From Candidatus Latescibacterota bacterium (GTDB lineage Bacteria > Latescibacterota > UBA2968 > GCA-2709665), in assembly GCA_965226795.1 (NCBI GenBank), contig CBDDDZ010000005.1:2080001-2144000 (forward strand): 64,000 bases of DNA, written 5' to 3'. The notes below the pieces were generated by a model, which saw only the letters and a program-made list of their open reading frames with translations, did not search any database and had not been told where the DNA came from. The first letter of the stretch is position 1. Each line of letters starts with the position of its first letter. Below, one piece after another: positions 23,311-28,936 of the stretch. Both the position numbers and the translations under genes were made by a program.

Positions 23311-24351
23311 CTATAGGAAATGTTCGCCGGCATGATCAGAGAACGAATCGGCGTCCCGGATATATTGCATGACAGTAGCCGGATTTGTATGTCGAGTAAC
23401 GGCCATGATTTTGTCCAGTCGGGCATGATGCACTGCAGCGCTGGTGACAAATCCCGCCCGCAAGGAATGTCCAGCTACTTCCTTTGGATTTAGTCCAATC
23501 CTTGAGGCATAATGCTTGACAATCCGCGGTATGTCAGAGTGGTGTAGCGGTCTCCCTTGCACATGGCCGCCGCGTTTCATTGATTGAAACAAAGGGCCTG
23601 ATGTGATTCGAGATGCTCGAAGCCACATCTGCAGCCGATGGATAGGCCGGATAACGCTACCGTCCAAAATTGCGATTCTTTGCCCCCTCCCCTGTTGATC
23701 CGTTTTAGACCGGCGGATAGTGAGGAACATGTGACGATTCGACCCGTTTTCGGTCTCAAGGAACTCGACATCGTCGACGATCAAGTCGCAAATCTCCGAA
23801 CGGCGGAGAGCGCCAGCAAATCCAACTGCAATTATCGCAGCGTCGCGCCGCCCAATTGTTGTATCAGGGCAGTGCGAGAGCATCGCCTGTATGTGATATT
23901 CTCTCAACGCTTCTACTCGCCAACATGCCGTACCCTTAAGCCGAGCTAAACCCTTGAGAGTGGCGCGAACCATCGGGTGGTTTGTTGGCGACGCCTTCCC
24001 TGCTTCGGTAAACTTCCTATTAATGGCGCTCTTGTAGAGCGTAACTGTGCCCATTGACAATACTGTCCCACTTCGCGTGCTGGGCTTTGTTGCCAAATGG
24101 ACGAGAAATCTCGCGACAGCGTCCGGCGAGGCAGATAGCGGCTCGGCATTTTCGATTTCATCGCAGTATTCAATGAATCTGGACCACCCTTTTTTGTAAG
24201 CAATTCCGGTATTTGTCGCCAACGCGGAGAAAAGCACTTCCGTATGAATGCCGTGCTCAATCGTGGCCGAGGAATTCAACAGATACTCCTTCGTGAAGAT
24301 TTGGGCGTCTTGCAACTTGGAGTATATGACTGCTCGAACATTGTAAAGCAA
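23311..24351 (-). CDS. Cre-like tyrosine recombinase/invertase
   Basis: Catalytic set R (GALRRSEI), K (RSKTD), HxxR (GHSLRAG), H and Y (RHTNPATVMQY); exact start uncertain. Confidence 0.92.
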   Translation of the reverse strand: MLYNVRAVIYSKLQDAQIFTKEYLLNSSATIEHGIHTEVLFSALATNTGIAYKKGWSRFIEYCDEIENAEPLSASPDAVARFLVHLATKPSTRSGTVLSMGTVTLYKSAINRKFTEAGKASPTNHPMVRATLKGLARLKGTACWRVEALREYHIQAMLSHCPDTTIGRRDAAIIAVGFAGALRRSEICDLIVDDVEFLETENGSNRHMFLTIRRSKTDQQGRGQRIAILDGSVIRPIHRLQMWLRASRITSGPLFQSMKRGGHVQGRPLHHSDIPRIVKHYASRIGLNPKEVAGHSLRAGFVTSAAVHHARLDKIMAVTRHTNPATVMQYIRDADSFSDHAGEHFL

Positions 24352-25106
24352 TTAACTACGGAATTAAAACGGGCTATAACGCAGCGTTTATCATTGATAA
24401 CGACACTAAAGAAGCATTGATAACCGAAGATGCTCGCTCAGCAGAAATCATCAAACGGCTGCTTCGTGGCAGAGACATTCAGCGCTATCGAGTCCATTGG
24501 GCAGGTCTATGGTTAATTGACGCGCACAACGGATACGGCAATGTTCCCGCTATCGATATTGAAGAATACCCAGCCATCAAAAACCATTTGGACGGGTTCT
24601 ATCCCCAACTGGAAAATCGGCAAGACAAAGGCAGGACACCGTATAATCTCCGTAATTGCGCTTACCATGAGGAATTTTCCAAGCAAAAGCTGTTCTGGAT
24701 GGACATGTCGAATAACGGCAGATTTGCCTACTCCGAGGTGCAGATATATTGCAACGACAAAGGGTTTTTTGTGACAGGTGAATCACTGAAATACTTTTGC
24801 GCGATTCTAAACAGCGCCCCTATCACGTGGTTGATGAAAAACAACGCATTGACGACGGGAATGGGGCTTTTGCAATGGAAGAAATTCGCTGTTGAACACC
24901 TGCCGATACCCAGAATTTCCGCCCCAGAGCAAAACACTTTCATCTGCTTGGTCGACCGCATATTGGAAGCGAAATTGGCCGATCCAGATGCTGACGTAGC
25001 CGCCACTGAAGCGGAGATTGATTCTAGGGTTCACGAATTGTACGGACTAACGGAGGCGGAGATCTCAGCGGTAGAGGAGCGGACTTTATCCTCTTCTTCT
25101 GGCTAG
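24348..25106 (+). other. Silent alternative C-terminal specificity (TaqI_C-like TRD) cassette of the adjacent methyltransferase, inverted
   Basis: Open frame AINYGIKTGYNAAFIIDNDTKEALITED...LRGRDIQRY...CAYHEEF...KYFCAILNS...EIDSRVHELYGLT is colinear with the last ~255 aa of 25160-28936; no catalytic motifs and no obvious RBS or ATG. Confidence 0.85.
24391..24409 (+). repeat. 19-bp inverted repeat, left copy (TCATTGATAACGACACTAA)
   Basis: Exact reverse complement of 25866-25884. Confidence 0.92.
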
Positions 25107-28100: not shown

Positions 28101-28936
28101 AACCAGACGAACAGGATACGAGTAATCAAACGGATTACCTGTTGCTCCGCAGGCACGGTCGAGGGGAATTTTGCATCCTCAGCCGCCCTCTTGAACCAGT
28201 CGAAGAGTTCGCCGTAGAACCGACGGTTGAGTTCCTCGGTGTCCAGTTTGTCCAACCAGGCGGCCAGGAGGCCATCGAAATTGTGTGGCTTGTTGTTGCG
28301 CCCCATCCATATTACGCACTCGGCCAGCGACAGCTCAGCCAATATGTCCAAATGGGCGCGGTGTGGACCGCCAGGGTTAATCTCTCGTATCAGCGACACT
28401 TTGCCCAGTACATCACGTTTCCGATCCAGCTTGTGCTCACCTCGATGAACAAAGGCAAGAGTTAGGAGATTGGATGTGGTGCGGAAGAGAACGACGGACG
28501 GTTGGTTCAGTCGCTTGTTAATCTCGCGGGTGAATAGCGCGTACTGTCCTCGAGTGCAGGTCGCTTTCTTGAGTTCGACGGCGAAGAAAGTAAAGCTGTG
28601 CTGATGTCCCCTGTCAAAGGAAGCGGCATCAAATGCAATCGTAGGCTGGCTGCTGGCCGCGATTTCGTCGCTTGTCACCTGAAAAATCAACTTCACGGAT
28701 TGCGTTTGTTCGCGAAACTCCTCTTCCGTCCTGGTGTTTTCGTTTGGAGCAGGGAATTCGCTAATAAACTCATCCACGCTTCCCGAAAGTTCCTGAATGC
28801 GCTCACTTTGATATCCCAAGACCTCAAGAATGTCTTTGGTCGCCCTCAGAAATTCGTTTGCTGGCATCGCCGCGAAAACAGATTGTAGGGCCTCCAACAG
28901 ATTGTCCGCGCTCGTTTTCAAGTTTTCTCTGCGCAT
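25160..28936 (-). CDS. Type IIG/Eco57I-like N6-adenine DNA methyltransferase (gamma class) with C-terminal TRD
   Basis: PFINGGLF, LDPELLGKVFENLL, RKQTGSYYTPR, motif I VLDPAVGSGAF, motif IV IGNPPY, TaqI_C-like C-terminus. Confidence 0.93.
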   Translation of the reverse strand: MRRENLKTSADNLLEALQSVFAAMPANEFLRATKDILEVLGYQSERIQELSGSVDEFISEFPAPNENTRTEEEFREQTQSVKLIFQVTSDEIAASSQPTIAFDAASFDRGHQHSFTFFAVELKKATCTRGQYALFTREINKRLNQPSVVLFRTTSNLLTLAFVHRGEHKLDRKRDVLGKVSLIREINPGGPHRAHLDILAELSLAECVIWMGRNNKPHNFDGLLAAWLDKLDTEELNRRFYGELFDWFKRAAEDAKFPSTVPAEQQVIRLITRILFVWFIKEKGLVREEWFVQAEVEQLLSKFGGSDYYRAVLQNLFFATLNTEIGARAFSTRREPNHRVFSRYRYKSLIDDVKRFESLMKQTPFINGGLFDCLDDEESRSAGGKRIDMFSDPDPSEGARAAQARRDAWRELNVPDALFFDDEYGLFPLLNHYKFTVEENTPIEQEVALDPELLGKVFENLLAAYNPETRETARKQTGSYYTPRAVVDYMVDEALVATLTQKVQPTVSGAKFRQDRFRYLLDYEDAFDDAHQLFEEAEEEGIVQAIAEIKVLDPAVGSGAFPMGILHKLTLALQRLDPGNNRWEALQKERAREKANVAFETRNQQERDAELMEISETFQRYSGDFGRKLYLIQNSIFGVDIQPVACQIAKLRFFISLAIEQEADKTADNFGIKPLPNLETRFVAANTLVGLQLSEVSSLLQDDAVQQNRKEIDAIRRKYFLANNRPQKIQYIRQEKNCLEQLEQALEDQRAEWEESQQREIERKIAQFPNPEHRKQLREDEQRKYKARKEKFDSSFEDARKITRWRPYDQNAKADWFDTKYMFGIEDGFDVVIGNPPYIQLQKNGGQLGKLYNNAGFETFARTGDIYQLFYEKGCQLLKPTQGLLAYITSNSWLKAEYGKALRRYFYERHTPLRLLEMGKDVFENTIVDTSVLLLREGKGIGEEACRAVDMDRLPTKDFPPDERLWGQTRLDGEKPWSILSRTEQSVMDKMQARGTPLKDWDIAIYRGVLTGCNDAFVIDNDTKNALVAEDPSSEDLIKPVLRGRDIKRYRAEWASLWLIATFPALTLNIDDYPAVKKHLLSFGKARLEQSGRTLPNGTKSRKNTVHAWYELQDTCAYHAEFGKEKLIWMDLTERGRFAFDMDCRFCVNTAFIMSGPSIKYLCAILNSNLVTWFMRNTALNSGMGVTRWINASVEPIPSPQLTAAEQFPFILLMDRILSAKTVGPDTETGKLEAEIDRMVYELYGLTKKEIAAIESKS
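25866..25884 (-). repeat. 19-bp inverted repeat, right copy, inside the methyltransferase CDS
   Basis: ttagtgtcgttatcaatga is the reverse complement of 24391-24409, in the same codon phase (IDNDT). Confidence 0.92.

Follow-up and report, generated by a model that had tools for sequence, protein, structure and literature searches.

We analyzed 64,000 nucleotides of DNA from an uncultured Candidatus Latescibacterota bacterium (GenBank assembly GCA_965226795.1, contig CBDDDZ010000005.1, positions 2,080,001 to 2,144,000; hereafter the window), in which the gene of a single-chain adenine methyltransferase is accompanied by a silent, inverted copy of its target recognition domain (TRD) and by the gene of a Cre-like tyrosine recombinase. 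Our results indicate that this arrangement is almost certainly an inversion switch. Very probably the switch, driven by the recombinase at three nested sites, makes the specificity of a restriction-modification-like defence island phase-variable, and it probably has up to eight states. The source genome comprises 5.4 Mb in 5 contigs, with the window on contig C5, and the relevant features of the window are listed in Table 1.

Table 1. Features of the switch and its island, in positions of the window (E, expectation value).
Feature	Position	Strand	Remarks
Cre-like tyrosine recombinase	23311-24351	-	longest open reading frame, 346 amino acids; Phage_integrase PF00589, E 1e-14
Outer site, silent copy	24347-24353	+	proposed core AGCAAT; start of homology with the active gene
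Silent inverted TRD cassette B	24348-25106	+	252 codons, without catalytic domain; TaqI_C PF12950, E 1e-11; open frame
Middle inverted repeat, left copy	24391-24409	+	19 bp; proposed core CGACAC, 24401-24406
Inner inverted repeat, left copy	24656-24667	+	12 bp; proposed core TTGCGC; crossover of P0034; contig ends in run X8
Type IIG-like N6-methyladenine methyltransferase	25160-28936	-	1258 amino acids; Eco57I, N6_Mtase, TaqI_C; GSGAF 557, NPPY 835; TRD A from residue 1004
Inner inverted repeat, active-gene copy	25581-25592	-	12 bp common to both copies; crossover of P0034
Middle inverted repeat, active-gene copy	25866-25884	-	exact reverse complement of 24391-24409, same codon phase
Outer site, active-gene copy	25922-25928	-	7 bp common to both window copies
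ParA-like ATPase, accessory gene	29034-30053	-	AAA_31; methyltransferase neighbour also in L024 and L036
Schlafen/AlbA_2 + RecG-C protein, accessory gene	30050-31288	-	domain match; present too in L024 and L036
Copy of methyltransferase N-terminal domain fused to sigma-70 factor	31455-33100	-	frameshifted in this assembly; single open frame in L033, L035 and L037
PLD-nuclease + SNF2 helicase, probable restriction partner	33097-36390	-	1097 amino acids; PLDc_2, SNF2, Helicase_C; PADLOC HKD+Snf2, E 6e-108; H128-x-K130

The silent cassette and its flipped counterpart in a relative

The silent copy begins at the outer site and lies tail-to-tail with the active gene; it shares 47% identity with the C-terminal 255 residues of the methyltransferase, and TaqI_C is its only domain. 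The middle repeat overlaps both coding sequences, with 1.46 kb between its two copies, and even with 3 mismatches allowed the pair has no other match in the genome. In silico inversion at this repeat yields a protein of 1255 amino acids in place of the present 1258. The first-pass annotation of this DNA had already described the diverged copy with its intact frame, the perfect repeat in the same codon phase and the product of 1255 amino acids, all of which were borne out here. None of 200 composition-matched random sequences reached a repeat of 19 bp. The repeat was not among the 25 longest pairs reported by a generic repeat finder, and it was detected by a dedicated script. A second silent TRD was not found in the genome.

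The annotation had further proposed that a recombinase-linked inversion swaps the specificity domain, and comparison with relatives strongly supports this. Of 60 relatives, 7 have a strong match to the recombinase (E below 1e-100), among them 2 of the 14 that belong to the same genus, and a scan of species genomes led to 12 loci. Once duplicates and cut loci had been dropped, there were 11 loci besides the window (from Candidatus Latescibacterota, Rhodothermales and Caldilineaceae) in which the recombinase, the silent TRD and the methyltransferase stand in the same order, which is the synteny that had been suggested as a check. These loci belong to uncultured hosts from several phyla that were recovered in sponge metagenomes. 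A locus of the same genus (G010) is flipped: over a segment of 1548 bp it matches (88%) the opposite strand of the window, while both flanks match the same strand. Up to the 19-bp repeat its active gene tracks the active copy of the window, and beyond it the silent copy; its silent cassette has the reversed pattern, and the change of allele falls exactly at the repeat in both copies. A one-base shift near the 3' end of both G010 copies may be an assembly error. In a further genome (G006) one contig stops at the end of the left middle repeat and another starts at the right one, as would be expected of an assembler meeting both orientations. When metagenomes were scanned with the 19-mer, 10 stretches were recovered, 8 without a relative of any island protein and 2 representing one locus. 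In L039 an insertion of about 1.25 kb of other DNA (8024-9278) splits the silent cassette.

Three nested sites and the modules of the TRD

Two states had been ascribed to the switch at first, and two further nested pairs of sites, one on either side of the middle repeat, had been missed. Our site comparison covers 12 loci, and 10 for the inner site, as the silent copies of L024 and L039 have no alignable inner site; omitted were L021/L034, L023 and L027 (contig ends cut the cassette), L029-L032 (no TRD) and the duplicates L033 and L044. The proposed 6-bp cores differ between loci and are the same in both copies of a locus, in 12 of 12 cases at the outer, 12 of 12 at the middle and 10 of 10 at the inner site. 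Over 90 positions at the start of the cassette, six-mers identical between the copies in all 12 loci were found only at 24347-24353 and 24396-24406. The outer and middle six-mers occur in 7 types each, and random pairing gave 2.0 and 2.5 matches against the 12 observed; for the inner six-mer (4 types) permutation gave 5.2 matches against 10 of 10. CATTGA was considered as the middle core and dropped, as the copies differ in it in 2 of 12 loci and never in CGACAC. Flanking sequences of roughly RTAH and TWAV accompany each of the three six-mers. Sites of tyrosine recombinases are built as arm, core and arm and need identity of the core, a layout to which these flanks and six-mers appear to conform.

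The sites divide the TRD into three modules. Module 1 is of the YRGVL or the NYGIK type, module 2 is either long or short, and module 3 comes in at least 4 types. The two copies carry different alleles of module 1 in 11, of module 2 in 12 and of module 3 in 11 of the 12 loci. All four combinations of modules 1 and 2 are seen among active genes, and all eight states of the window, assembled in silico, are open frames of 1249-1264 amino acids with the recombinase intact in each. Three short segments had been named as those in which the two domains differ most; one of them, IYRGVLTG/INYGIKTG, belongs to module 1 and lies outside of the segment that the 19-bp inversion exchanges. Among 120 homologous proteins, 37 have a complete and classifiable TRD, and pairs of these differ module by module. 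P0092 and P0093 differ in 5 of 1237 residues, all within module 1, P0069 and P0070 have a common core and different modules 2 and 3, and P0075 and P0081 have different module-3 types and identical last 250 core residues. P0034 is of the composition A-A-B, with modules 1 and 2 of the active window copy (100% and 92%) followed by module 3 of the silent one (93%), and the switch between them falls at the inner site.

To relate the modules to base recognition we used CamA of C. difficile (PDB 7LNI), the best relative of the methyltransferase with a solved structure (E 2.5e-17) and the closest one for catalytic domain and TRD. Its base contacts involve Gln346, Ile349, Arg425, Gln438, Trp439, Tyr455, Ser472/Ala473, Ser514, Ile517 and Tyr521 (PMC8187626). 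Unlike the present enzyme, CamA is an orphan of fixed specificity and has neither a silent copy nor the N-terminal 400-residue region. The mapping includes a one-residue numbering offset, deduced from the chain length. Gln346 and Ile349 align with R1007 and L1010 of module 1, which are Y and K in the silent copy. In module 2, Arg425, Gln438 and Trp439 align near K1100-R1102, Q1113 and D1114, and in module 3 Tyr455 aligns with D1131 and Ser472/Ala473 with CVNTAF, while Ser514, Ile517 and Tyr521 lie just beyond the printed alignment, near GMGVTRW. From this distant alignment each module should read different bases, and because the modules align with different base-contacting residues of CamA, each state of the switch should methylate a different motif. 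On this map, module 1 would be expected to alter one central base of the motif, module 2 the bases most distant from the target adenine and module 3 those closest to it.

The recombinase always directly adjoins the outer site, and it lies about 3.5-4 kb from transfer RNA genes with other genes between. The annotation was right that it has a full catalytic set (R183, K216, H295, R298, H321 and Y330, each of which is unchanged in all 12 aligned homologues), but the start it had assumed, at 24351 beside the left repeat, is less likely than TTG at 24279, which follows AAGGAG at 24286-24291 and would give 322 amino acids. A profile built from 12 homologues matched Cre over most of its length (E 4e-8) and XerD over a short stretch (E 5e-8); a single-sequence search of solved structures gave no match, and the structure model is poor (predicted local distance difference test, pLDDT, 53). 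Its position and the identity of the cores suggest that it acts on the three putative sites. Recombinases 62-65% identical to that of the window are also found in three Candidatus Binatia loci (L029, L030 and L031) next to long inverted duplicate genes, with a third partial copy in L031. These encode a porin-like protein with a signal peptide and a terminal Phe, and possibly the same recombinase clade shuffles a surface protein there.

In the mechanism we propose, the recombinase would bind short arms (about RTAH and TWAV) on either side of a 6-bp core that lies within the coding sequence, and would invert the DNA between matching cores, so that the expressed gene receives module 1, 2 or 3 from either allele. 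Cleavage would probably be supplied by the upstream PLD-SNF2 protein, and the cells of a population would differ in methylome and restriction specificity, which would hedge the population against phages and plasmids. We lean slightly towards a more specific form of this proposal, a three-module, eight-state shufflon within one TRD, with a dedicated Cre-like recombinase acting on minimal sites in coding sequence, each module reading a different part of the motif, cutting by the PLD-SNF2 protein and not by the methyltransferase, and allele sets of sponge bacteria of several phyla that amount to a lookup table from module to base.

Sequencing runs and alternative explanations

Parts of the stretch occur in 11 sequencing runs from 5 studies, of which 4 are labelled as sponge metagenome, and the contigs of four runs were compared. 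X6 and X7, which are from one sample and are the runs closest to the window, may represent its source sample. X8 is from another study and a diverged strain (1-4% differences). Its contigs overlap at 24638-24667 and 25563-25592. A junction that joins B module 2 to A module 3 was predicted to leave two 30-base overlaps at exactly these positions, and this indirectly supports switching at the inner site. Other X8 contigs end at the middle repeat, which a longer static repeat also explains, and one break near 24837-24865 fits no site. In run X1 the cassette is covered in scraps only.

A number of observations weigh against the proposed switch. In X6 a single contig spans 22500-26266 in the deposited orientation with zero differences, X7 has the deposited orientation only and its sole break, at 24424-24453, is off any predicted junction (depth about 10-15 in both), and no inverted, strand-changing joint was among the joints listed for the contigs of the four runs. 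The evidence from X8 was read from contig ends at a depth of 3-4 and could stem from another strain. When the homology of the two copies was kept in the null model by shuffling codon columns of their alignment, a run of 19 appeared in 2% of the trials (P about 0.02), and the 19-bp repeat alone is therefore modest, suggestive evidence, so that it is the comparative data that carry the case. The permutation tests on the cores overstate the agreement because the loci are related, and the outer site consists of 7 identical bases in the window versus a 13-bp perfect repeat in G010. Gene conversion could be the source of some of the same mosaics. Finally, the recombinase family is not tied to TRDs alone, as its three close Binatia homologues adjoin duplicated genes other than methyltransferases.

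The single orientation in X6 and X7 would also be seen if the machinery were real but locked or dead in this strain, and the same explanation would account for the broken neighbouring genes (the frameshift in the sigma-70 fusion and the stop in the TIR-domain gene) and for a promoter and terminator scan in which nothing exceeded chance, including near the recombinase. We regard such a locked state as improbable, since the recombinase has an intact frame and catalytic set, all eight states are open, and contigs at a depth of 10-15 drop rare variants. It is somewhat easier to imagine, though still unlikely, that the switch has two states here, with only the 19-bp pair active and the outer and inner pairs being relics or used on an evolutionary time scale only. 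G010, the only full flipped locus of the same genus, used the middle site, and the outer and inner sites of the window are short, with 7 and 12 identical bases. The cores of both are, however, still identical between the copies, P0092 and P0093 differ in module 1 only, and for these same alleles the inner site is implicated by both P0034 and the contig ends of X8.

A different function for the parts would be that the silent copy serves as a donor, used occasionally in gene conversion or in exchange that depends on RecA, and that the recombinase is only the integrase of the island. The island is indeed lower in G+C and patchily distributed, with the recombinase in 2 of 14 other genomes of the genus, and some loci have long homogenised repeats of up to 145 bp. 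We consider this explanation very improbable, because G010 is a clean reciprocal inversion, the alleles stay complementary in nearly all loci and the recombinase keeps its place against the outer site, at a distance from the transfer RNA genes. At 7-19 bp, the stretches that the copies share are also rather short for homologous recombination, and this too weighs against a mere donor. Taken together, we prefer the recombinase-driven switch at three nested sites.

The island, its methyltransferase and related systems

Between about 21.5 and 36.5 kb the G+C content drops from about 0.60 to 0.48-0.55 (value for comparison, 0.58). On the minus strand the island reads PLD + SNF2 helicase, sigma-70 fusion, Schlafen/AlbA protein, ParA-like ATPase, methyltransferase, tyrosine recombinase and TIR-domain gene. 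The PLD-SNF2 gene is thus the fourth gene upstream of the methyltransferase, with three genes between, and it is found upstream of the methyltransferase in 7 of 11 relative loci within the DNA examined. From its HxK motif, the PLD-SNF2 protein appears a likelier cutter than the methyltransferase chain. The latter carries the motifs of a gamma-class adenine methyltransferase followed by the TRD (TaqI_C at 1039-1198), and its Type IIG-like assignment comes from PADLOC models (REase_MTase_IIG, E 1e-132). Its N-terminal domain is modelled with confidence (pLDDT 92), but a Foldseek search with it gave no match at E <= 0.001, and a wider structure search was dominated by a helical hairpin; neither outcome is evidence of a new fold. 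The similarity to the N-terminal part of DrdV is weak and within background (Z 4.9, root-mean-square deviation 3.9, 122 aligned), the nearest named atlas cluster, MmeI_N at 0.83, is a lead only, and a candidate ExK motif is poorly conserved, with E121 in 83 and K123 in 60 of 143 homologues. A related methyltransferase in genome G008 (L053/L057) is without about 550 internal residues (315-860), and no recombinase match was found in that genome.

The setting had been called much less familiar at first, yet it matches a class reported by Milman, Yelin and Kishony in 2023, and it is well supported that the switch belongs to a kind known since then. They confirmed 11 inversions in Type II restriction-modification genes by long reads, four of them in Cj0031 homologues, two of which lie beside a PLD + SNF helicase gene (PMC9881135). 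Their class (b), exemplified by Bacteroides ovatus CP083813.1, has a single-chain Type II gene with a truncated inverted partner coding sequence, repeats within the coding sequence and a nearby PLD-SNF helicase and recombinase, and at some loci they report several variants (PMC9881135). As in that class, the truncated coding sequence here is without the region upstream of the repeats, the repeats are brought close, the methyltransferase is of the Eco57I type and there is a rearranged relative, at genus level. The window differs in the three genes between helicase and methyltransferase and in its uncultured hosts from several phyla; in the excerpt of that paper, no three-module layout, no 6-bp core and no match to base-reading residues were found (PMC9881135).

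Other known systems share parts of the design. The pneumococcal cod/hsdS inverton likewise uses one tyrosine recombinase (PsrA) and three repeat pairs, one of only 15 bp, to shuffle specificity domains, but its target is a Type I HsdS with whole TRDs as units, whereas here one TaqI_C-type TRD inside the methyltransferase is split into three sub-domain modules (PMC7096588); HsdS, HsdM and HsdR families were absent from the island proteins scanned. Nested inversions in a single-chain adenine methyltransferase beside a recombinase are also described for BREX-1 PglX and DISARM DrmMI (PMC9881135). The window did not match BREX or DISARM class 1 (the methyltransferase scored 72, where the cut-off for PglX is 500, and the helicase 144, where that for DrmD is 610), and BrxC, PglZ and DrmB had no match among 9 island proteins scanned. 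Cj0031 is a phase-variable single-chain Type IIG enzyme whose variable C-terminal TRD sets the N6-methyladenine motif, but it is turned on and off by a polyG tract and not by inversion (PMC4889913). A literature search whose scope left out most subscription papers found nothing on a three-module TRD shufflon or on the site of this recombinase.

The locus is therefore a clean example of a recently described, experimentally little-studied switch, to which it adds exact crossover sites, a candidate recombinase core and modules lined up with base-reading residues. The way in which a TaqI_C-type domain encodes its motif could be read directly from eight locked alleles of a single 1.6-kb cassette and, if the proposal is true, the allele sets shared across phyla are a natural lookup table for this. 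Uncultured symbionts would vary methylome and defence specificity in this way, which is relevant to methylation-based binning and would explain assembly breaks at such loci.

Some further observations concern the neighbouring genes. In the sigma-70 fusion, which is part of the defence operon, the copy of the N-terminal domain is 51% identical to the methyltransferase's own and the sigma-70 factor is complete; it is one open frame of 530-542+ amino acids in L033, L035 and L037, and the frameshift in the window is near 31880. Compared with the defence-linked sigma factor MzaA, its score was under the cut-off. The TIR-domain gene (about 21842-23060, minus strand) lies downstream of the recombinase and has homologues adjoining the recombinase in L021/L034 and L039; by eye, it contains an in-frame TGA near 22918-22920 that removes the first half of the TIR domain. 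A second, distant pair of PLD-helicase and methyltransferase genes (25-26% identity) is located at about 1586000-1594000 of the same contig (G000:C5), and no silent TRD was found there. Elsewhere in the window, an ankyrin-repeat gene and a secreted-protein gene are flanked by a perfect 21-bp inverted repeat (43682-43702 and 46275-46295), which is probably dispersed, as it has 13 copies in the genome at up to 3 mismatches.

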